Translations under genes and position numbers: made by a program
DNA from: Acidimicrobiia bacterium
GTDB lineage: Bacteria > Actinomycetota > Acidimicrobiia > Spongiisociales > ZC4RG35
Length of the DNA stretch: 64,000 nt
NCBI GenBank assembly: GCA_048595045.1
Contig: JBMDXS010000214.1
Coordinates: forward strand, 9,831-73,830
Direction of reading: 5' to 3'
Shown: piece by piece, positions 40,165-49,327 of the stretch
Layout of the letters: each line of letters begins with the position of its first letter
How positions within the stretch are numbered: position 1 is the first letter of the stretch
Notes under the pieces: model-generated
Told to the model about the DNA's origin: nothing
Databases searched by the model: none
The model's input: only the letters and a program-made list of their open reading frames with translations

Positions 40165-40324
40165 CTGACGAGACTAGGTGTGTGGGGTTCGCCCCGGTCG
40201 TGTGGCCTGCCGACCCTCCCGGTCCGGTCCGAACCCGAAGTGGCTTTCGCCCCTACCGGTTCCAGATCGAACGCCCGAACCTTGAAATCGGGCCTTGGGT
40301 GCGTTGATCGGCGAGGAGGGACAA

Positions 40325-41971
40325 ATGTCACGTCACGTCAGGACTCGATCGGCAATCATCGGCTTGCTCGCCGTTTGCCTCTTCCTGGTCGGCTTGCCCG
40401 CCACCGCCACGGTCTCGGGTCAAAACGGCAAGATCGCCTTCGTCAGCGATCGGGACGGCAATCCCGAGATCTACGTCATGGAGGCCGATGGCTCGAATCA
40501 GGTCAACCTGACCAATCATCCCAGCTCCGACCGAAGCCCGACCTGGTCTCCCGACGGCCGCCAGATTGCATTTGTATCCGACCGAGACGGCGAACGCGCC
40601 ATATACGTCATGGACAACGACGGCTCGAATCTCAGGTTCCTGGTCAGAGGCGAGTATCCAGCCTGGTCACCCGACGGCAGGATGATCGCCTTCGCCAGAA
40701 GCATCGCACCCAACAAGAATGCGTTGTTCTTGTTGCAACTCGATGATGATCACCAGACACAGATCACCGATCCCCTCAGGGATCCTCTGCCCACGGGTCT
40801 GATAGGCAGATTCGACAGATCGCCGATCTGGTCTCCAGACGGGACGCAAATCGCCTTCTTGCGTAGTCACGTCACCGCTGGTTCGCCCATGACTCACTAT
40901 GACTATCTGTACGTCACCGCGGCGACGCCAGCAGGCGACCCGGTGCGCCTCCCCACGAGCACCACTGTCAGACGCTACGCCGACCCCGACTGGTCGCCCG
41001 ACGGTGCCAAGATCGTCGTAGGTGAGATCGGGCATCTCAATCTCACGTTTCAAACCGTGGCTGTCAACGTCGACGGTTCAGGATTCGCCCCCCTCCCTGC
41101 CCTTGCCGGATCACACCCTGATGTCTCGTGGTCGCCGGACGGCTTGAGATTGACGTCCGGCTCGGACGAGATCTTTGTGATGCGGGTCGATGGCTCCAAC
41201 GCGGACAATCTGACCAACAATCCTGCTGCTGACTATCAGCCGGTCTGGCAACCGCTGAACCCCTATCCGGCAGGTCTGGTCGACCCTGCTACCGGTATGT
41301 GGCATCTCCGGTACGAGAACGGGCACGTCGACAGCTTCTTCTTCGGTGATCCCGGCGACTTTCCGTTCCTCGGCGATTGGGACTGCGACGGGATCGAGAC
41401 CCCTGGTCTGTATCGCCAGTCCGACGGTTTCGTCTACTTGAGGAACTCCAACACCCAGGGCATCGCCGACATCCGGTTCTTCTTCGGCAACCCGGGCGAC
41501 ATCCCGATCGCCGGTGACTTCGACGGCGACGGGTGCGACACCGTCTCCATCTATCGACCGGCCGAGGGGCGGATCTACGTCGTCAACCAGTTGGGTAGCG
41601 GAGACAGCGGACTCGGAGCGGCCGATTACAGCTACCTGTTCGGGGACCTGGGCGACAAGCCGTTCGTCGGCGACTTCGACGGAGACGGCACCGACACCGT
41701 CGGGCTCCATCGCGAGTCCACCGGCATGGTGTATTACCGGGACAGCAACACCCAGGGCGTCGCCGACAACACCTTCGTCTTCGGCGACCCGGCCGACCGC
41801 CTGGTGGCATACGACTGGAACGGTGACGGGAGAGAATCTCCGGCGGTGTTCCGCCCCGAGAACCACACCGTCTACTTCCGCTTCGAGAACAGCACCGGTG
41901 TCGCCGACGCCCGCTACATCTGGGGAGCCCCCGGCTGGTTGCCGGTGGCCGGTGATTTCGGCCCGGACTGA
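40325..41971 (+). CDS. secreted protein: TolB-like PD40/WD40 beta-propeller repeats + five FG-GAP-like Ca-binding repeats
   Basis: It has a signal peptide MSRHVRTRSAIIGLLAVCLFLVGLPATA with GAGGAGG upstream. PD40 repeats read SDRDGN.EIYVM..DGSN...LT....D..P.WSPDG. The C-terminal repeats read F.FG..GD.P..GD.DGDG.DT...YR. Confidence 0.75.
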   Translation: MSRHVRTRSAIIGLLAVCLFLVGLPATATVSGQNGKIAFVSDRDGNPEIYVMEADGSNQVNLTNHPSSDRSPTWSPDGRQIAFVSDRDGERAIYVMDNDGSNLRFLVRGEYPAWSPDGRMIAFARSIAPNKNALFLLQLDDDHQTQITDPLRDPLPTGLIGRFDRSPIWSPDGTQIAFLRSHVTAGSPMTHYDYLYVTAATPAGDPVRLPTSTTVRRYADPDWSPDGAKIVVGEIGHLNLTFQTVAVNVDGSGFAPLPALAGSHPDVSWSPDGLRLTSGSDEIFVMRVDGSNADNLTNNPAADYQPVWQPLNPYPAGLVDPATGMWHLRYENGHVDSFFFGDPGDFPFLGDWDCDGIETPGLYRQSDGFVYLRNSNTQGIADIRFFFGNPGDIPIAGDFDGDGCDTVSIYRPAEGRIYVVNQLGSGDSGLGAADYSYLFGDLGDKPFVGDFDGDGTDTVGLHRESTGMVYYRDSNTQGVADNTFVFGDPADRLVAYDWNGDGRESPAVFRPENHTVYFRFENSTGVADARYIWGAPGWLPVAGDFGPD

Positions 41972-42040
41972 CGCCCTCGAAAAAAAGCCCGGGGACCGGT
42001 ATGCCCCAACCTGTCCCACGCCGGATCTACGCTCGCCGCG

Positions 42041-43714
42041 ATGGAGGAGATGGTCGGCCGAGTGCTTGGGACCAGCGATGCCACCCCACTCGAGTTCTGG
42101 GTGGGTGTGGCCGATGGCGAGTACCTGGAACTGGATGATGTGGTGGCCCTGGAGAGGGTGCTGCCCACCGGCGAGCTGGTCAAGATCTTCGGCACCATCA
42201 GCCAGGTCCGCGCCCGTCACGAAGGGGCGCGGTTCGATTCCGATGTCTTCCTCATCGAGGAGGGTGTGCTTCCCGCCGCGGTCCAGGAGGCGGCCCAGGT
42301 CACCGCGACCCGGGTCGAGCCCGAGATCTTCGTCCCCCCCCGCCCCGGCCAGCCGGTGCGCCGGGCCCATGACAAAGAGCGCGACCAGGCCCTGTTCTTC
42401 GATCGGATGGATCGGAGGTTCCCCGTCGGGGCCTCACGTAATGGCGAGCCTCTCTATGCCAACCTGGAGTTCATCAACGGGCAGCGTGGGGCGCATGTGA
42501 ACATCTCCGGGGTATCGGGCGTTGCCACCAAGACCAGCTATGCCACCTTCCTTCTCCACTCGATGTTCACCTCCGGCGTGCTCGGACCGGCCGTCGTCAA
42601 CACCAAGGCACTGATCTTCAACGTCAAAGGCGAGGACCTTCTCCATCTCGATCGACCCAACACCAGCCTCGATGATGACGCCGAGCGTCTCTACCGGGCT
42701 CTCGAGCTACCGGCCCAGCCATTCGGTTCTGTCGGGTTGTTCGCCCCTCCCCGCCCCGGATCGGACCGGGCCGTGGCCGACGTGAGCAGCCGCTCGGACC
42801 TCACCTCCTTCTTCTGGACACTGGCCGAGTTCTGCCACGAGGACCTCATGGTCTTCCTGTTCGCCGACGCCGAGGACGAACGAGCGCAGTACACCATGGT
42901 GGTCTACAACGTGATGGCCCAGCTGCGCCACGCAGAGGGTGGGGACGGAGGCTCGGTCCGCATCGAAGGGGAGGCCGTTCGCACCTTCAGGGAGCTGGCC
43001 GACCTGATCACGAGAAAGGTGCAGGACGAGGACTCGCGCAACGAATGGGCCGGGCCCCATATCGGTGCCGGGACCGTGAATGCCTTCGTGCGTCGTCTCC
43101 AGGTAGCGGTGCGTCACGTCGATCGTCTGATCCGGGGTGACATCGCCAACCCGGAACGGCATCGCATCGAGGTCCAGGGCCATCAGGTGACCGTCGTGGA
43201 CCTGCACAACCTCAATGATCGGGCGAAGAGATTCGTGGTCGGTGTGGCAGTGAGACGTGCGTTCGAAGACAAGGAGCGGGCCGGCCAGTCAGAGGAGTTG
43301 CTCTTCCTGGTCCTTGACGAACTGAACAAGTACGCCCCGAGAGAAGGGACGAGCCCAATCAAGGAGGTGTTGCTCGATGTGGCCGAACGTGGCCGATCCC
43401 TGGGTGTGATCCTGATCGGTGCCCAGCAGACTGCTTCCGAGGTGGAGCGGAGAATCATCGCCAACTCGTCGATCAGGGTGGTCGGGCGTCTCGACTCTGC
43501 CGAGGCCTCGCGTGAGGAGTATGGATTTCTCCCCGCGGCCCAGAGACAGCGGGCCACCATTCTCAAGCCGGGCACCATGCTCCTGGCCCAACCCGAGATC
43601 CCGGTGCCGCTCGTGCTCGAGTTCCCGTTTCCCGCCTGGGCAACCCGTGCCTCGGAGGCGGCGCCGGCGCCGATCGGAGATGATGGTCCGACCGACCCGT
43701 TCCAAGATCTGTAG
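42041..43714 (+). CDS. herA: HerA-like FtsK/HerA-superfamily ATPase (HAS-barrel N-terminus)
   Basis: 557 aa. The N-terminal VGRVLGTSDATPLEFWVGV....LELDDVV resembles the HerA HAS barrel. The P-loop region is HVNISGVSGVATKTSY, Walker B is LLFLVLDELNKY and the Arg-finger-like region is RSLGVILIGAQQ. Confidence 0.7.
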   Translation: MEEMVGRVLGTSDATPLEFWVGVADGEYLELDDVVALERVLPTGELVKIFGTISQVRARHEGARFDSDVFLIEEGVLPAAVQEAAQVTATRVEPEIFVPPRPGQPVRRAHDKERDQALFFDRMDRRFPVGASRNGEPLYANLEFINGQRGAHVNISGVSGVATKTSYATFLLHSMFTSGVLGPAVVNTKALIFNVKGEDLLHLDRPNTSLDDDAERLYRALELPAQPFGSVGLFAPPRPGSDRAVADVSSRSDLTSFFWTLAEFCHEDLMVFLFADAEDERAQYTMVVYNVMAQLRHAEGGDGGSVRIEGEAVRTFRELADLITRKVQDEDSRNEWAGPHIGAGTVNAFVRRLQVAVRHVDRLIRGDIANPERHRIEVQGHQVTVVDLHNLNDRAKRFVVGVAVRRAFEDKERAGQSEELLFLVLDELNKYAPREGTSPIKEVLLDVAERGRSLGVILIGAQQTASEVERRIIANSSIRVVGRLDSAEASREEYGFLPAAQRQRATILKPGTMLLAQPEIPVPLVLEFPFPAWATRASEAAPAPIGDDGPTDPFQDL

Positions 43715-43715
43715 C

Positions 43716-43747
43716 GCCCGGGGGTAGGGGTCGCCCCCCAGGTTCGA
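43716..43747 (+). repeat. Palindromic intergenic repeat, copy 2 (diverged, 1-2 nt shorter)
   Basis: CCCGGGGGTAGGGGTCGCCCCCCAGGTTCGAC lies between the herA-like gene and sbcD. Confidence 0.75.
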
Positions 43748-43827
43748 CCGCGGGCGCGAGATCGCATCTCCCCGAATCTGTCGGTGCTCGGTCCTACGAT
43801 CGCCCTCATGACCCGCTCGGTCCCTCC

Positions 43828-44958
43828 ATGAAGATGCTCCACACCTCCGATTGGCACGTGGGGAGGAAGATCCGCGGACGTTCCCGAGCCGACGAGCATC
43901 GGGCCGTCCTCGGCGAGATCGTCGGGATAGCCGAGGAGGAGCGGGTCGATGTCACGCTCGTCGCCGGGGACCTCTTCGATGTCTCGTCGCCAACACCGGA
44001 GGACGAGGCCATCGTCTATCGGGCCTTGCTCGACTTGGCCGAGGTGGGCCCGGTCGTGGTGGTGGGGGGGAATCACGACAACGCGGCGCGTCTGGAGGCG
44101 GTCAAGCCGCTGCTCGACCTGGGGCGGATCACCGTCGTCGCCAGGCCGACCAGGCCGGGCGATGGGGGCCTGATCGTCTTCGATGGGCTCGATCTCTCCA
44201 TCGCCGCCCTGCCATTCATCTCCCAACGGGGGATCGTGAAGGTGGCCGAGATCATGGACCTCGATCCCGATCAACATGCCCAGGGCTATGACGAGCGGCT
44301 GCGCAGGATCATTGTCGGGCTCACCGAGGGCATGCGCCCCGACCAGGTCAACGTGGTGGCCGGTCATCTCACCGTGTACGGAGCCGAGACCGGTGGTGGG
44401 GAGCGGGATGCCCACATATTCGGCTACGCCATCCCCCCACAGGCGTTCCCCGGCAGCCTTTCCTACGTCGCACTGGGTCATCTCCACCGCCAGCAACGAG
44501 TTCCCGCGGCTGCACCTGTCTGGTACAGCGGCTCTCCGATGCAGCTCGACTTCGGCGAAGTGAGTGACGTCAAAGGCGTCATCGTGGTAGATGCCGAGCC
44601 CTCTTTGCCTGCCTCGGTTCGGCCCCGCCCTCTGGCCGGCGGGACCAGGCTTGTCCAGCTGAGGGGCACCCTGGAACACGTCCTGGCCCAGGCTGCTGAG
44701 GTCCAAGACGCCTACGTGAAGGTCCTTCTCGACGAGAAAGCGCGGGCCGGGTTGAACGAGGAGGTCCGGGAGGCGATACCTGGGGCCGTGGATGTCATCA
44801 TCATCCGCCCCGAGGAGCGGGCGAAACGTACCGAGACGAGACGATCGGGACGATCTTCGGTCGAGCTGTTCGAGAGCTATCTCGCCACGCGTGGAGTCGA
44901 CGATCCCGAGGTGGTCGGGTTGTTCCGCGAGCTCGAGCAGGAAGTGCTATCCGGATGA
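43828..44958 (+). CDS. sbcD: exonuclease SbcD / Mre11-family nuclease
   Basis: It has MKMLHTSDWHVG, AGDLFD, GNHD and ALGHLH phosphoesterase motifs. Confidence 0.9.
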   Translation: MKMLHTSDWHVGRKIRGRSRADEHRAVLGEIVGIAEEERVDVTLVAGDLFDVSSPTPEDEAIVYRALLDLAEVGPVVVVGGNHDNAARLEAVKPLLDLGRITVVARPTRPGDGGLIVFDGLDLSIAALPFISQRGIVKVAEIMDLDPDQHAQGYDERLRRIIVGLTEGMRPDQVNVVAGHLTVYGAETGGGERDAHIFGYAIPPQAFPGSLSYVALGHLHRQQRVPAAAPVWYSGSPMQLDFGEVSDVKGVIVVDAEPSLPASVRPRPLAGGTRLVQLRGTLEHVLAQAAEVQDAYVKVLLDEKARAGLNEEVREAIPGAVDVIIIRPEERAKRTETRRSGRSSVELFESYLATRGVDDPEVVGLFRELEQEVLSG

Positions 44959-47285
44959 GGCCGCGGCATCTGGTCATGGAGGGATTCCTCGCCTACCGGC
45001 GCAAGACCGAGATCGACTTCAACGACGCAGACCTCTTCGTGCTCTCGGGCCCCACTGGTGCCGGCAAGTCGAGCGTGATAGACGGGATCACGTTTGCGCT
45101 CTACGGCGCGATACCCCGTCTGGGCAAGGGCTCGGTGGCGCCGCTGATCTCCGCCCAATCCGACCGCGCCCGCGTCTCCTTCCGCTTCACGGTTGGCGAC
45201 GAGTTCTATACCGCCGCCCGCATGTTGGAGCGTCACGGGGCGGGGGCCAGCACCAGGGAGGCCAGGCTGCAGCGGGGCACGGAGGAAGTGGTCCTGGCCG
45301 GCACCCCCGACGAGGTGACTGCGGAGGTGACCAAGCTGTTGGGGCTCAGCTACGAGCACTTCGTCAAGGCGGTCGTCCTGCCCCAGGGGGCCTTTGCCGA
45401 CTTCCTCACCGACAAGCCGAAGGACCGGCAGGCACTTCTCGGAGAGCTGCTCGACATGGGTCTCTACGAGGAGGTGATGCAGCTTGCCAATGTCCGCACC
45501 AAGCTCGCCGATGGCCGGGCGAAGACTGCCGTGGAGAGTCTCGCCAAGCTCGACGTGGCCACCGACGCTCAGCTGGCAGAGGCCCGTGCCAGGCTGGAGC
45601 ACCTGATCGGGGCGGGGATAGAGCTCCCCCGCCGGCTCGAGCTGCTGGAGAGTCTCGACGCGATCTGTCGGAAGGCGCGGGAGGCCTACACGGCCGTGGT
45701 CGGGAGCCTGGATCGTCTCCGCGCCATACAGATCCCTGGTGACCTCGAGACCTTGGGGGAAGACAGGAGGACAGCGGGTGAGGCCATGACGATCGCTCAG
45801 ACCGGGCTCTCTGCCGTCCTAGACGAGCGGAGAGGTCTTCAGGAGCGAGCCGCCGGCCTGCCTGCGTTGGCCCAGCTCCAGTCCTACCGACAGGACCAGA
45901 TGACGCGCGTGGAGCTCGCCGATCGTCTGGCGGCACTCGACCTGACGGCCCTGGCTGCGGAGTGGGAAGGGGCGGCCGCGGCCTGTGATCAGGCTCGCCT
46001 CGATCTGGAGACAGCCAGGGTCGCCCACGTGGCCCAAGACTTGCGCCAGGCCCTGGCCTTGGGGGATCCCTGTCCGGTGTGCGGGGCGGTGGTCGGCACA
46101 CTCGATGAGAGAGAGACCGAGCTTCACGGGTCCATCGAGTTGCTCCGGGAGAAGCTGAATCGCGCCGAGGAGCGGGCCGACCAAGCCCGAGGTGCGGTCA
46201 AGGGAGCCGAGGGCGAGGCCAAGCAGATCGATCGTCAGCTGGTCGAGGTGACCGCCCGACTCGAGGAAGCCCCCTCCCCCGAGGCTGTCGCAGACATGAT
46301 CGAGAGAGTTCGCTCATCGGAAGAGGCACTGCTGGCCAACGAGAAGAGGGTCGAAGAGGCGCAGTTGGAGGTCGATGCGGCCGGGCTCCTCGTCGCCGGG
46401 CTCGAAGAGCGAAGCACCGGTCTCGGTGAGGCGCTGCTCGCGGCAAGGGACAGGGTCGCATCCGAGGAGCCGCCCATCCCCGGCAAGGACCCGATCGAGG
46501 CATGGCACAGATTCGAGGAATGGCTCATCGGGAGGATGGCCGATCGAGCGGGTGAGCTGGCATCCCTGGAAACGGCGCGTAAGGAGGCAGACGCGGCTCT
46601 GGGTGCGGCGATGGGAGAGCAGCGCGCCTGGCTCGATGGGCTGGGCATCCCGGTCACCGATTCGCCGGGCACCGACCTCGCCCTGGCCGAGGCAGGTCAG
46701 AGGGCCGCCATCGACGAGATGGAGAAGACCATCACCCTGGCCTCTGAGCTGGAAGAGGAGCTGACGCTGGAACAAGCCCGGGCCCGGGTTGCCTCGGCGC
46801 TGGGGAACCACCTCAAGTCGAACAACTTCGAGGCCTGGCTTCTGGAGGAGGCGATGGAAGTTCTGATCGATGGGGCCAATGGGCTCCTCGACGATCTATC
46901 CGGCGGCGCCTACTCGCTAAAGATGACCAAGGGCCAGTTCGAGGTCATCGACCACCGCAACGCCGAGCTGACCAGGACGACCCGGTCCTTGTCCGGGGGA
47001 GAGACGTTCCTGGTTTCGCTTTCGCTGGCCTTGTCGATGGCCGACCAGCTCGCCCTGCTCACCGGCGTGTCCTCGCGTCTCGAATCGGTCTTCCTCGATG
47101 AGGGGTTCGGGTCGCTCGACCAAGAGTCGCTCGATGTGGTCGCGTCCGTGCTCGACGAGCTGGTCGGCCGCGGGCGCACCGTCGGCATAGTCACCCACGT
47201 GCGGGAGCTCGCCGACCGCATCCCGGTTCGGTTCGAGGTCACCAAGGGCCCGGAGACGGCCACGGTCACCAGGTTGGGGGAGTGA
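44955..47285 (+). CDS. sbcC: SbcC / Rad50-family SMC-like ATPase
   Basis: It has Walker A GPTGAGKSS, a long coiled coil with a central CPVC zinc hook (46071-46082), the signature LSGGETF and Walker B VFLDEGFGSLD. The start overlaps the sbcD stop (ATGA). Confidence 0.9.
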   Translation: MRPRHLVMEGFLAYRRKTEIDFNDADLFVLSGPTGAGKSSVIDGITFALYGAIPRLGKGSVAPLISAQSDRARVSFRFTVGDEFYTAARMLERHGAGASTREARLQRGTEEVVLAGTPDEVTAEVTKLLGLSYEHFVKAVVLPQGAFADFLTDKPKDRQALLGELLDMGLYEEVMQLANVRTKLADGRAKTAVESLAKLDVATDAQLAEARARLEHLIGAGIELPRRLELLESLDAICRKAREAYTAVVGSLDRLRAIQIPGDLETLGEDRRTAGEAMTIAQTGLSAVLDERRGLQERAAGLPALAQLQSYRQDQMTRVELADRLAALDLTALAAEWEGAAAACDQARLDLETARVAHVAQDLRQALALGDPCPVCGAVVGTLDERETELHGSIELLREKLNRAEERADQARGAVKGAEGEAKQIDRQLVEVTARLEEAPSPEAVADMIERVRSSEEALLANEKRVEEAQLEVDAAGLLVAGLEERSTGLGEALLAARDRVASEEPPIPGKDPIEAWHRFEEWLIGRMADRAGELASLETARKEADAALGAAMGEQRAWLDGLGIPVTDSPGTDLALAEAGQRAAIDEMEKTITLASELEEELTLEQARARVASALGNHLKSNNFEAWLLEEAMEVLIDGANGLLDDLSGGAYSLKMTKGQFEVIDHRNAELTRTTRSLSGGETFLVSLSLALSMADQLALLTGVSSRLESVFLDEGFGSLDQESLDVVASVLDELVGRGRTVGIVTHVRELADRIPVRFEVTKGPETATVTRLGE

Positions 47286-47395
47286 GACCCCTCCCCGCCC
47301 GTTTCCCCACCCGGAGGGGAAGTCGGCGCGAAGTTCCCCCCTCCCCCGGCTACGCCGGTACTCCCCCCTACGGGGGGAGAAACAGGGGCGGAGTA

Positions 47396-47434
47396 ATGAT
47401 GCGGCGGCATCGCTCCGCACGGGGGAAGCGATGA
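47396..47434 (+). promoter_or_regulatory. candidate 12-codon leader ORF (MMRRHRSARGKR) overlapping the downstream start codon
   Basis: The sequence is ATG ATG CGG CGG CAT CGC TCC GCA CGG GGG AAG CGA TGA. GGAG lies at 47390-47393. The TGA (47432-34) overlaps the ATG (47431-33) of the NurA-like gene. The region also forms the hairpin CATCGCT(47408-14)/AGCGATG(47427-33). Confidence 0.3.
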
Positions 47435-48336
47435 GATTCACCGTCGAGGCCTGGGATCCCGATTACGGGGCGTCCTCAGACCCCGAGCTGGCCGACGCCA
47501 CGGAGAACGTCGATGTCTCGGTCGAACTGACGCCGGAGCAGTGGCACCCCATCCTGCCCGAGGCCGTTCCCGCGCCGGACATCTTGTTCGTGGACGGTGT
47601 GCGCCGGGTCGACGCCAATCTGTGGATCGAGCACGACGGTCGGTTTCCAAGCTTCGGCCTGGCCGCCACCTTCGCGGCCGGAGCGGTGCGATGCAACAGC
47701 GAAGCCGTGGTGGTGGCCGCAGAAGTTCGGCGGGGTGTGTTCACCGGCGCCGACGCCGACCCGGTGAAGACCACCATCGGGACATATCAGGTGATGAGCA
47801 CCAAAGGCTCGACCCCGGAGGAGCTTTGGCTCGGCATCCAGCAGCGGATGGGAGATCTGGAGGGTGGCATCGCCGAGCGACATGCCGACGTGGCACTGAT
47901 GGTGGTCGACGGGCCACTCTCCCATCGACGTCATGTGGAGGGGGCCGTCGGCTACGTCAAGACACAGCACGTCCAATATCTGCCCGACGATCTGAGGGCG
48001 ACGTTGGGTGCCCTGCCCGTCGGGCATCGAACGCCGCTCTTCCTCACCACTACCTCGTGGAGCAGATTCTCCTGGTATCTGCGTCTCGCCAATGGCACCG
48101 GTCCGGCTGGGGGGCTGGTGCGGTGCGAGGTCCAGGCCGACATGAGCGTGGCGGAGGCAGTGCGGCGGGCAAACCTGGTCACCGCTTCGCTGCCCCGGTA
48201 TGCGTCGGCCCGACACAAGGACCCCCGTGCCCCCCAGAACCTCTACCCGATCGGCGGTCTCGAACGCGAGCTACGCCGGCGGCTGGGTGATCGGGACCTG
48301 GCCATCCGAGCCCTGCGACTGGCTGCTGCATCTTGA
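47431..48336 (+). CDS. nurA: NurA-like nuclease (assignment by context and weak motif)
   Basis: 301 aa. The N-terminal strand ILFVDGVRR (Asp at 47593-95) resembles the NurA catalytic (I/V)DG(S/V) motif. It occupies the position of nurA in the archaeal herA-mre11-rad50-nurA operon. Confidence 0.5.
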   Translation: MRFTVEAWDPDYGASSDPELADATENVDVSVELTPEQWHPILPEAVPAPDILFVDGVRRVDANLWIEHDGRFPSFGLAATFAAGAVRCNSEAVVVAAEVRRGVFTGADADPVKTTIGTYQVMSTKGSTPEELWLGIQQRMGDLEGGIAERHADVALMVVDGPLSHRRHVEGAVGYVKTQHVQYLPDDLRATLGALPVGHRTPLFLTTTSWSRFSWYLRLANGTGPAGGLVRCEVQADMSVAEAVRRANLVTASLPRYASARHKDPRAPQNLYPIGGLERELRRRLGDRDLAIRALRLAAAS

Positions 48337-48342
48337 CGATGC

Positions 48343-48358
48343 CCGCCCCGTCGGGCGG
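48343..48358. terminator. short GC hairpin between convergent genes
   Basis: CCGCCC-cgtc-GGGCGG lies 7 nt after the nurA-like stop and 16 nt from the convergent EamA stop. There is no U tract. Confidence 0.3.
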
Positions 48359-48373
48359 TGGCCGGAACCGGGC

Positions 48374-49327
48374 TCAGGCCACGCTGTGATCCTCGCCCTC
48401 GAGCATGGCCGCCCCGGGAGCCGGCGGGGCCTCCCGTCTCGAGGCGAGGATGGCGCCCGCGATCACGAGGAGAGAGCCCACGATCGCCACGGGAGCGACG
48501 ATCTCGTCACGGAAGGTGACGCCGAGCACGAGGGCCCCGACCGGGACCAGATAGGTGATGAAACTCGCCCGGGTCGGACCGACGCTTCCCGCCAGGCCCC
48601 CCATCAGGATGTAGGCCAGACCTGTGCCAAGAAGCCCGAGGGCCGCCATGGCGAGGAGCGAGGGCCATGCGAAGCCAGATCTGAGCAGCCCATAGATCCC
48701 GTATGGTGCCACCAGGATCACCCCCAGCCAGAGCATGCGAGCCATCACCGGTATCGATCCGTAAGCCTGCTGGAGCGGGGTGACGATGTTGGTGGCGAAT
48801 CCGTAGCAGATGGTCGCTGCCAGCACCAGAGCCACGCCGAGAGCGGCGGTCTGGCCGCTTTCGGCCGAGGGGAGGGCGATGGCGAGGATCCCGGCGAACC
48901 CGAGGAGAAGGCCGACGATCTGGAGGCGGCCCGGCAGTTGTTGGAGGAGGATCGAGGCGATGATGGCGGTGAAGATCGGCACGGCCCCGTTCAGCATGCC
49001 GGCCACGGCCGAGTCGATCCATTGCTGTGCGATGGGAAACAGAGTCAGCGGGATCGCCACCCATACCACTGAGAGGAGGGCGACCCGGGGCCGGTCGACC
49101 TTCTCTATCGTCGCTGCCCGTGCCTGGGGCAGGGCCGCCATGAACAGGGCGCCGAAGCCAACCCGCATCCACGTCACCAGCCCAGGGTGGAACGCCTCCA
49201 GTCCGACCTCGATGAAGAGGAAAGAGGCGCCCCAGATGAGGCCGATCGACACGAAACGGGCCCAATCCCGGGCATTGAATGCCTCGCGGTTGGTCCCATG
49301 GGATGTGGTCAGCAGTCGATTGGCCAT
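48374..49327 (-). CDS. EamA/DMT family transporter
   Basis: 317 aa with 10 predicted TM helices and duplicated EamA-like halves (WGASFLFIEVGL...). Confidence 0.8.
   Translation of the reverse strand: MANRLLTTSHGTNREAFNARDWARFVSIGLIWGASFLFIEVGLEAFHPGLVTWMRVGFGALFMAALPQARAATIEKVDRPRVALLSVVWVAIPLTLFPIAQQWIDSAVAGMLNGAVPIFTAIIASILLQQLPGRLQIVGLLLGFAGILAIALPSAESGQTAALGVALVLAATICYGFATNIVTPLQQAYGSIPVMARMLWLGVILVAPYGIYGLLRSGFAWPSLLAMAALGLLGTGLAYILMGGLAGSVGPTRASFITYLVPVGALVLGVTFRDEIVAPVAIVGSLLVIAGAILASRREAPPAPGAAMLEGEDHSVA

Follow-up and report, generated by a model that had tools for sequence, protein, structure and literature searches.

The locus analyzed here raises the question of whether a bacterial genome carries the DNA end-resection genes of archaea as a working unit, and for what purpose. 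The role of HerA-NurA is disputed: deletion phenotypes in Deinococcus and Thermus are weak, an antiviral role has been suggested for the archaeal complex, and bacterial herA-nurA is still presented in recent papers as something particular to Deinococcus-Thermus. In the window, i.e., the whole 64 kb stretch of Acidimicrobiia DNA analyzed, a preliminary description had placed four same-strand genes, and the ORF positions bore this out:

42041-43714, plus strand: herA, 557 aa
43828-44958, plus strand: sbcD, 376 aa
44955-47285, plus strand: sbcC, 776 aa
47431-48336, plus strand: nurA, 301 aa

The GC3 of all four ORFs is of coding type (0.78–0.83). The described coupling of sbcD and sbcC was found as an ATGA overlap of stop and start (tccggATGAggccg). 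The following motifs were located in the first three products:

HerA: N-terminal HAS-barrel region; Walker A GVATKT (K164/T165); Walker B LDE (D426/E427)
SbcD: five phosphoesterase motifs, D8xH10, GD48, GNHD81-84, GH179 and GHLH217-220, plus an SbcD_C domain
SbcC: Walker A G32PTGAGKS; Q-loop PQG143; zinc hook C373PVC376; signature SGGE680; Walker B DE715-716; H-loop H748

In a sequence search against solved structures, the herA product matched Deinococcus radiodurans HerA (DrHerA; PDB 7f6d_B) with an E value of 6.5e-144. The match was full-length (aligned residues 3–294 and 310–540) and included the N-terminal region, as expected for the HAS-barrel HerA-like ATPase described before. The Pfam HAS-barrel model alone remained sub-threshold (E 0.04), and the HerA_Thermprot model gave E 0.015. 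FtsK-type models (EssC/EccC) reached only 2e-3 to 4e-3 across about 80 residues, and the protein groups with HerA rather than with the FtsK-type clade. K164, D426 and E427 are invariant among 31 diverse HerA homologues, and T165 is nearly so; K164/T165 correspond to DrHerA K175/T176 and D426/E427 to DrHerA D487/E488 (PMC9960219). Judged by sequence, the first ORF encodes a bacterial-type HerA of the DrHerA clade within the FtsK-HerA superfamily, a predicted hexameric DNA translocase/ATPase.

The second product scored 170 bits against TIGR00619 (cut-off 77.65) and had Pfam matches to Metallophos and SbcD_C (28.1 vs. a cut-off of 24.4). It was closer to E. coli SbcD (6s6v_A, E 7e-33) than to Pyrococcus Mre11 (2e-11). 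With all five motifs present, the Mre11/SbcD phosphoesterase call held, and this ORF is identified as a bacterial SbcD with the full motif set, the predicted Mre11-family nuclease subunit. In the third product, AAA_23 and SbcC_Walker_B exceeded the Pfam cut-offs, and E. coli SbcC (6s6v_C) was matched with E 5.7e-41. Its 235 bits on TIGR00618 lie under the cut-off of 478.5, which is consistent with short coiled coils. The short 776-aa Rad50/SbcC with a CPVC hook was recognized correctly: the hook lies at residues 373–376 (nt 46071–46082), and the ABC motifs are complete. Of 60 orthologues (median length 812 aa), 55 have a CP[VLI]C hook mid-protein. This ORF is assigned as a bacterial SbcC, a short Rad50/SbcC-type ATPase with a split ABC head and a central CxxC hook.

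The 301-aa product, described before as NurA-like, carries the ILFVDG motif at residues 51–56. On the Pfam NurA model (PF09376), it scored 16.2 bits (E 0.007), under the cut-off of 21, and the NCBIfam search gave no NurA match; homologues 69–82% identical to it carry a precomputed PF09376 match. Sequence search retrieved D. radiodurans NurA (DrNurA) at E 8.7e-19 and the Thermotoga NurA TM1739 at 4e-6. A profile of 34 operon-linked homologues matched DrNurA at E 5.3e-45, and archaeal NurA was not found even with this profile. An AF2 model of the product (pLDDT 76, pTM 0.78) retrieved, by Foldseek, DrNurA (7f6d_G, E 3.8e-17, TM 0.65) and TmNurA (1zup, E 4e-14, TM 0.65–0.67). Thus, the NurA call was upheld by sequence, profile and predicted structure, with the Pfam model itself below threshold. 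W8, D55, E144 and D160 are invariant in the 34 homologues, and P10 and Y12 nearly so. The conserved acidic residues D55, E144 and D160 are candidate catalytic residues. W8 would correspond to DrNurA W8, which is required for efficient resection, and P10 and Y12 would fall within the range of the DrNurA pin residues 10–15 (PMC9960219); in the model presented here, residues 1–20 are of low confidence (pLDDT < 50). The fourth ORF is assigned as a bacterial-type NurA nuclease with a predicted RNase H-like fold.

The synteny survey covered the 80 species genomes whose HerA is closest; most belong to Actinomycetota, and the culturable Micromonospora and Actinoplanes are among them. The complete order herA-sbcD-sbcC-nurA was present in 63 of the 80, and these cover Acidimicrobiia and cultured Micromonosporaceae as well as long contigs of other phyla. 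Thirteen further loci were consistent with it, being cut by contig ends or, in 3 loci, lacking nurA. The nurA gene is missing after sbcC in L025, L070 and L078, and no sbcD lies within 1.6–3 kb after herA in L005, L006, L009 and L039. At the sbcD/sbcC and sbcC/nurA junctions, 4-nt or 1-nt overlaps are common among the relatives, as are herA-sbcD gaps of 3–20 nt, and HerA, SbcD and NurA diverge in a correlated manner from locus to locus (rho 0.70–0.88). Flanking genes are housekeeping genes both in the window and in Micromonospora; the flanks are kept across Micromonosporaceae, and a downstream EamA gene is common to Acidimicrobiia. These comparisons give good support to a four-gene set that is conserved in many bacteria and is probably a true operon. 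A chance adjacency of four ORFs, or mis-called HerA and NurA, might be suspected from the sub-threshold Pfam scores and the empty NCBIfam search, but is hardly credible given the strong matches to solved structures and the synteny, and was rejected. The set had been regarded as exceptional in bacteria; instead, it is widespread. The bacterial clade is a large one, with a relative in no fewer than 594 species genomes and with 515 clusters (50% identity) scoring E ≤ 1e-30.

Four further features were located upstream of herA and in the spacers:

42012-42033, plus strand: P1, RecA-NDp-like promoter motif, TGTCCCAC-GCCGGATC-TACGCT
43779-43800, plus strand: P2, promoter motif in the herA-sbcD spacer, TGTCGGTG-CTCGGTCC-TACGAT
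43808-43831, plus strand: candidate leaderless uORF of 7 codons (MTRSVPP), predicted
47286-47430, plus strand: sbcC-nurA insertion, GC-rich and hairpin-forming, lineage-specific

When compared with the mycobacterial PafBC/RecA-NDp regulon (Gamulin 2004; PMC5656591; PMC6789036), P2 is a perfect match to the consensus tTGTCRgtg-8nt-TAnnnT quoted in PMC5656591, and P1 matches just the TGTC core and the TAnnnT hexamer. Unlike this consensus, a variant, TGTCGTAC-N8-CAGGAT, is found in 24 of 28 Micromonosporaceae-group loci. On both strands of the window, TGTC-N12-TANNNT occurs only as P1 and P2, and the strict consensus once (P2), compared with 0.01 matches expected. Among related loci, 22 of 79 have the motif upstream of herA (background 0.0029 per 150 nt) and 13 of 77 have one upstream of sbcD, the latter including every locus with foreign genes between herA and sbcD. 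Across 2.7 Mb of related loci, 33 of the 52 TGTC-N12-TANNNT sites are at herA/sbcD positions; sites elsewhere are found before genes for DUF222-HNH, LigD Prim-Pol and DUF559 proteins. In P1, the −10 hexamer stops 7 nt short of the herA ATG, so that the herA mRNA would be leaderless. The candidate uORF starts 7 nt past the −10 hexamer of P2, and its TGA overlaps the sbcD ATG (ATGA). Its length, the 7–8 nt spacing and the stop/start overlap are kept in L001–L004, where the peptide differs, and in L008, sbcD itself begins at the uORF position. The scanned proteins of the window include no WYL regulator, and the accessible PafBC/RecA-NDp papers do not list HerA or NurA in the regulon. We propose, as a new observation, that two candidate promoters of the DNA-damage (PafBC) type precede herA and sbcD.

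Both spacers had been described as structured. Their lengths (113 nt for herA-sbcD, 145 nt for sbcC-nurA) stood, and so did the structure of the latter, whose folding is more stable than that of shuffled sequences (MFE −78.6 kcal/mol; z −3.0, 1 of 200 shuffles); the P2-containing 113-nt spacer folds no better than shuffles (z +1.4). The 145-nt insert lacks a T-run and contains an SD-like GGGGGAAG upstream of the nurA ATG. L002–L004 lack it and have overlapping sbcC stop and nurA start codons, and L001 has it only in part. Neither a second copy in the window or in the relatives' loci nor an Rfam match was found. The insert could uncouple nurA expression in this one genome.

Taken as a whole, the locus is probably a chromosomal, DNA-damage-inducible operon for double-strand break (DSB) processing, whose four proteins would most likely act in sequence. 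Transcription would start from the two RecA-NDp (PafBC-type) promoters, the first giving a leaderless herA mRNA and the second lying in the herA-sbcD spacer. SbcCD would recognize and clean blocked or hairpin-capped DNA ends, and a HerA hexamer with a NurA dimer would then load onto the cleaned end. By analogy to the D. radiodurans complex, HerA would pump duplex DNA into NurA. The N-terminal pin region of NurA would split the strands, and the 5' strand would be degraded, leaving a 3' tail for RecA. Within this reading, we infer the physical cooperation of SbcCD with HerA-NurA, the 5'-strand polarity, PafBC dependence and damage induction. DrNurA-HerA resects the 5' strand in vitro (PMC9960219), and archaeal Mre11 binds HerA (PMC2288612).

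Several observations were counted against sequential DSB processing. P1 matches the core of the consensus only, the 145-nt insert separates sbcC from nurA, and some relatives lack nurA or an adjacent sbcD. Deletions of nurA/herA in D. radiodurans and T. thermophilus had a modest or even positive effect on radiation, UV or mitomycin C resistance (PMC9960219). In a 2026 study, archaeal HerA-NurA was argued to cut both strands and to be possibly antiviral (PMC12977600).

The preliminary description had offered a DSB-resection machine or a defence module; resection is favoured by the protein identities, the synteny and the promoter motifs, while defence found little support. In an anti-phage or anti-plasmid system, NurA and SbcCD would destroy foreign linear DNA fed to them by the HerA translocase. 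HerA-family ATPases are indeed paired with nucleases in Sir2-HerA and DUF4297-HerA (PDB 8xau, 9c1m and others), and TdpAB (8wfd) was the fourth Foldseek match of the NurA model (E 1.4e-3). However, anti-phage HerA structures were matched at E values of about 1e-3 or weaker, compared with 1e-144 for DrHerA, and the scan of the window found neither Sir2, DUF4297 nor other defence-associated genes near the operon. PADLOC reported partial matches to mad8, HerA, LmuB and mad3, but these cover generic ATPase segments only (mad8 1e-10, 115 residues), and NurA gave none. The presence of the operon in several phyla at 63–69% HerA identity suggests horizontal transfer, and a copy on a Streptomyces linear plasmid adjoins Wadjet-like genes and an ImmA/IrrE gene. 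Nevertheless, the neighbourhoods are housekeeping in nature and stable across genera, and plasmids and phages almost never carry the operon (HerA match in only 6 of 72,556 plasmid records; no close HerA match in phages). In addition, the promoters resemble a DNA-damage motif also located before LigD and DUF222-HNH genes. A defence function is accordingly rated as improbable.

It is rather unlikely, too, that the genes are co-regulated but functionally separate, sharing an operon through a common regulon only. SbcCD would then keep to hairpin or blocked-end cleavage, and HerA-NurA would serve in fork or intermediate processing, in a link to chromosome segregation or in RecJ modulation as in Deinococcus. 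This would fit the separation of nurA-herA from sbcCD in Deinococcus and Thermus, the HerA-RecJ interaction in D. radiodurans (PMC4663267), relatives having herA without adjacent sbcDC or sbcDC without nurA, and the foreign genes tolerated between herA and sbcD (L007, L011, L014, L026, L046, L050, L056). On the other hand, sbcC/nurA overlaps are common, and since the obligate partners herA and nurA flank sbcDC, the set appears to be inherited and expressed as one block. Moreover, a second independent order, nurA-herA-sbcD-sbcC, exists on a cyanobacterial plasmid and in Oceanithermus (PMC5448004), and archaea combine the same four-gene linkage with an Mre11-HerA interaction (PMC2288612).

The locus encodes a well-supported repair system that is not fundamentally new. 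It reveals a large bacterial clade in which, for the 80 genomes with the closest HerA, the gene usually stands in one tight operon with SbcCD behind promoter motifs of the DNA-damage type. Micromonospora and Actinoplanes are genetically tractable models for a possible Mre11-Rad50/HerA-NurA cooperation in end resection and for possible PafBC control. A more far-reaching reading is tentative and rather doubtful: in many Actinomycetota, and here and there in other phyla, the proteins may form a single four-protein DSB end-resection machine that PafBC controls directly. This machine would be a bacterial counterpart of archaeal MR-HerA-NurA, its gene order stemming from inheritance or transfer as one ancient unit, and not from convergent evolution or recent transfer from archaea to Deinococcus-Thermus.

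With respect to known systems, E. coli SbcCD (PDB 6s6v) is the best structural-sequence match for SbcD and SbcC and shares the nuclease motifs, ABC-ATPase motifs and zinc hook. E. coli SbcC has 1048 aa compared with 776 aa here, which points to shorter coiled coils, and unlike in E. coli, sbcD-sbcC is embedded between herA and nurA. The D. radiodurans NurA-HerA complex (PDB 7f6d; Xu 2022; Yang 2023, PMC9960219) has a closely homologous HerA and the same NurA fold, with the Walker residues and probably NurA W8 also conserved; given this likeness, a 6:2 translocase-nuclease architecture would be expected here. Deinococcus has nurA-herA, overlapping by 4 nt, and no sbcCD in the operon, while here sbcD-sbcC lies between the two genes, HerA is shorter by about 60 aa and NurA by about 70 aa, and the putative promoters are of the actinobacterial RecA-NDp type. 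A linkage of bacterial HerA/NurA to SbcD/SbcC is already published for Oceanithermus profundus (nurA-hepA-sbcD-sbcC; Blesa 2017, PMC5448004), and the same linkage, in the order nurA-herA-sbcD-sbcC, is found on a Sphaerospermopsis plasmid (L082). In those clusters from Thermales and cyanobacteria, nurA comes first, whereas it comes last in the Actinomycetota locus.

For the archaeal operon, we take the listed gene order to be the physical order at the Sulfolobus locus. The genes are listed as herA, mre11, rad50, nurA (PMC4351679), and in Sulfolobus and Pyrococcus, MR and HerA-NurA constitute a proposed end-resection pathway (PMC4351679, PMC2288612, PMC3326311). The four functions and their order are shared with the present locus, as the preliminary description had claimed; the proteins themselves are not of archaeal type. 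SbcD and SbcC are nearest to E. coli, and archaeal NurA and HerA are undetectable or barely detectable by sequence; identities in the literature are under 20%. NurA of bacteria is equipped with a pin motif and contacts HerA through an ionic interface (PMC9960219). By these comparisons, all four proteins are bacterial-type and not archaeal imports, and only the gene order is 'archaeal'.

The four forward-strand ORFs were confirmed exactly at the positions given in the preliminary description.

Features of the herA-sbcD-sbcC-nurA operon
42012-42033, upstream of herA: promoter motif P1, TGTC-N12-TANNNT; its -10 hexamer ends 7 nt ahead of the herA ATG
42041-43714, + strand: herA, 557 aa
43779-43800, herA-sbcD spacer: promoter motif P2, TGTCGGTG-CTCGGTCC-TACGAT, a perfect match to tTGTCRgtg-8nt-TAnnnT
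43808-43831: candidate 7-codon uORF, starting 7 nt past the -10 hexamer of P2, its TGA overlapping the sbcD start
43828-44958, + strand: sbcD, 376 aa
44955-47285, + strand: sbcC, 776 aa
47286-47430, between sbcC and nurA: GC-rich multi-hairpin insert, 145 nt, z of -3.0
47431-48336, + strand: nurA, 301 aa

All four ORFs resembled genuine genes in their GC content by codon position (GC3 of 0.78-0.83; genome GC of 66%). The ATGA overlap of sbcD stop and sbcC start was confirmed, and the CPVC zinc hook and the ILFVDG motif were found at residues 373-376 of SbcC and 51-56 of NurA, respectively. The exact sequences of three of the four proteins (SbcD, SbcC and NurA) are present in public Acidimicrobiia MAG data, which places the host in the Acidimicrobiia (Actinomycetota). 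Since the exact 557-aa HerA sequence is absent from the protein collection holding the other three, public gene calls probably use another herA start. With the -10 hexamer 7 nt away, ATG 42041 is favoured as the putative leaderless start.

Family searches identified HerA and NurA weakly. In Pfam, HAS-barrel was matched by HerA with an E value of 0.04 and the NurA family by the nurA product with 0.007, under the family cut-off, and the NCBIfam scan of the latter gave no NurA match. These weak calls were settled by comparison with solved structures. D. radiodurans HerA (7f6d_B) was matched over nearly the full length at E 6.5e-144, as expected for a HerA rather than an FtsK-type ATPase; the next-best structure matches were anti-phage HerA proteins, at about 2e-3 or weaker. 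In the sequence search of solved structures, NurA matched D. radiodurans NurA (DrNurA, 7f6d_H) at E 8.7e-19 and Thermotoga TM1739 (tmNurA) at 4e-6, and a NurA profile of 34 operon-linked homologues reached DrNurA at 5.3e-45 over residues 33-301. The top structural matches of the AlphaFold model (pLDDT of 76, pTM of 0.78) were DrNurA (E 3.8e-17; TM 0.65) and tmNurA (4e-14; TM 0.65-0.67). Thus, the 301-aa protein matched DrNurA by sequence, profile and predicted structure. Archaeal NurA structures were not reached by the 34-sequence profile, so that no direct likeness to archaeal NurA was seen by sequence.

Residues K164 (Walker A) and D426/E427 (Walker B) were invariant in 31 diverse HerA homologues; their DrHerA equivalents, K175 and D487/E488, are required for ATPase and resection activity (PMC9960219). 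In NurA, W8, D55, E144 and D160 were invariant, W8 being the counterpart of drNurA W8 beside the pin motif (PMC9960219).

SbcD contained all five phosphoesterase motifs and passed TIGR00619, and SbcC showed a complete ABC head and the hook. Of 60 orthologues of SbcC (median length of 812 aa), 55 have a central CP[VLI]C hook. The closest structures were those of E. coli SbcCD (E 7e-33 for SbcD, 5.7e-41 for SbcC), with Thermotoga proteins next and archaeal proteins after these. Since the best matches of all four proteins are bacterial, the proteins are of bacterial type and the gene order alone is 'archaeal'. Of the archaeal herA-mre11-rad50-nurA set described initially, the order therefore stands; the proteins are closest to D. 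radiodurans HerA/NurA and E. coli SbcCD.

A bacterial HerA profile found at least 594 loci in species-representative genomes, and the HerA family comprised 515 clusters (50% identity) at E<=1e-30. Synteny was judged on the 80 closest loci among the matches listed (numbered from L001). Complete loci were determined by presence and order of the genes; a 70% tblastn coverage criterion undercounted them, since the coiled coils of SbcC fail to align. Synteny in relatives was confirmed, with herA-sbcD-sbcC-nurA complete, in order and on a single strand in 63 of the 80 loci. A consistent partial set was found in 13, most of them ended by a contig end, and in the other four (L005, L006, L009, L039) no sbcD lay in the 1.6-3 kb available downstream of herA; in L009, an AlkZ-like DNA glycosylase gene comes next. 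Three of the 13 partial loci (L025, L070 and L078) have herA-sbcD-sbcC and enough sequence for nurA, yet no nurA was found in the 1.2-2 kb that follow or elsewhere in the locus sequence. Broken or truncated sbcC frames (94-716 aa), which may be pseudogenes or errors of assembly, were seen in L011, L016, L023, L030, L049 and L053, mostly MAGs; L023 also retained just an N-terminal fragment of nurA. Carriers included Acidimicrobiia and cultured Micromonospora, Actinoplanes, Longispora, Phytohabitans and Plantactinospora, as well as long contigs labelled Azotimanducaceae (5.8 Mb chromosome), Longimicrobiales (3.4 Mb), Saprospiraceae, Acidobacteriota and Limnocylindrales.

In related loci, sbcD/sbcC and sbcC/nurA commonly overlap by 4 or 1 nt, and herA and sbcD are commonly 3-20 nt apart. 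In L007, L011, L014, L026, L046, L050 and L056, herA and sbcD are separated by 1.1-3.1 kb of unrelated genes, including those for a DsbA-like thioredoxin, a DAO oxidoreductase, a MerR/GyrI-like regulator, an MDMPI_N protein and a 711-aa protein without a Pfam match. Both spacers of the window operon had been described as structured; this held for the 145-nt sbcC-nurA spacer and failed for the 113-nt herA-sbcD spacer (z of +1.4). Judged by sequence comparison, the 145-nt spacer is a lineage-specific insertion: an ATGA/GTGA overlap takes its place in L002-L004, and L001 alone has part of it. A REP/MITE-like repeat was rejected, as no second copy other than the partial one in L001 occurred in the window or the 80 loci. 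An Rfam scan of 41500-48800 (E<=1) found nothing.

The consensus matched perfectly by P2 is that of actinobacterial RecA-independent DNA-damage promoters (PMC5656591), and 0.01 such matches are expected per window. Even the relaxed motif TGTC-N12-TANNNT occurred across both strands of the window only as P1 and P2. It was present upstream of herA in 22 of 79 loci and of sbcD in 13 of 77 (background of 0.0029 per 150 nt), and upstream of nurA in none of 64; 33 of the 52 sites in 2.7 Mb of related loci lay at the herA and sbcD positions. Where genes are inserted between herA and sbcD, four of the seven loci (L007, L011, L014, L026) had their own motif 6-8 nt before sbcD, and L046, L050 and L056 had none just before it. 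A variant, TGTCGTAC-N8-CAGGAT, was found in 24 of 28 Micromonosporaceae-group loci.

Elsewhere, two tandem sites precede a DUF222-HNH endonuclease gene in L007 (3820-3897), and minus-strand sites lie near 21150 in L036 and near 9050 in L031; the genes behind these other sites encode the DUF222-HNH endonuclease, a LigD Prim-Pol and a DUF559/MTES_1575 protein. DUF222-HNH, LigD Prim-Pol and DUF559 genes are typical members of the mycobacterial DNA-damage regulon, and their position behind these sites suggests that, in the taxa concerned, the motif is a marker of DNA-damage-regulated genes. We infer from the sequence that the operon may be PafBC-dependent; no WYL regulator (PafBC) was present among the 24 window proteins scanned. 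LexA control of herA was not supported, with a GAAC-N4-GTTC box upstream in 1 of 79 loci only. The scan for sigma-70 promoters was negative, and terminator-like sites did not outnumber those of shuffled sequences.

The length of the candidate uORF, its 7-8 nt spacing and its overlap with sbcD were kept in five genomes (window, L001-L004), with a varying peptide; in L008, the sbcD start itself lies at the uORF start position. This fits a leaderless uORF that would couple translation into sbcD.

The operon might instead be a defence module against phages or plasmids, for which little support was obtained. The sole hint of a defence context was a copy on a Streptomyces linear plasmid beside Wadjet-like genes, whereas PADLOC returned generic partial matches only, HerA relatives occurred on 6 of 72,556 plasmid records, and the phage search found 0 HerA relatives at close similarity. 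The window neighbours are housekeeping genes (mannosylglycerate synthase, PD40 propeller protein, EamA, GpsA, YchF, GcvP and menaquinone genes); the downstream EamA gene is common to Acidimicrobiia loci, and the operon flanks are kept across Micromonosporaceae. Housekeeping neighbours, rarity on plasmids and phages, and the damage-type promoters thus favour a chromosomal DNA-damage response as the probable function. The gene directly upstream of herA (40295-41971; TTG start) encodes a 558-aa PD40/WD40-like beta-propeller protein, lies where the GC content of the window is lowest (0.629) and is conserved in L001 only.

In a chromosomal DNA-damage response, SbcCD would open or clean blocked DNA ends, and HerA6-NurA2 would next translocate on the duplex and degrade the 5' strand. 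This scheme is modelled on D. radiodurans, whose translocating HerA-NurA complex degrades the 5' strand (PMC9960219), and the same polarity would be expected here by analogy. Cooperation of SbcCD with HerA-NurA may be inferred from the interleaved, overlapping operon and from the interaction of archaeal Mre11 with HerA (PMC2288612).

The structure and biochemistry of bacterial NurA-HerA are already known, as is SbcCD linkage in one bacterial genus. The order nurA-herA-sbcD-sbcC, reported for Oceanithermus (PMC5448004), was found on a cyanobacterial Sphaerospermopsis plasmid (AP018315.1, L082), i.e., the four genes in another order than here, whereas Deinococcus maricopensis and related contigs (within L083-L087) have nurA-herA alone. 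L085 and L087 also have sbcD (opposite strand) and a RecD2-like helicase gene, about 5-7 kb upstream of that pair. The Streptomyces sp. BB1-1-1 linear plasmid (L081; NZ_CP134205.1, 413748-429382) carries a copy of the set in which the SMC/SbcC is long (1117 aa), next to the Wadjet-like genes (TIGR02680, TIGR02678, DUF2397), an ImmA/IrrE peptidase and a ResIII helicase. In the literature searched, the wide spread of the herA-sbcD-sbcC-nurA order, especially in Actinomycetota, seems under-appreciated, although it may have been mentioned before; so do the identity of this bacterial order with the archaeal one and the presence of promoters of the RecA-independent, PafBC-type (RecA-NDp) class ahead of these genes.
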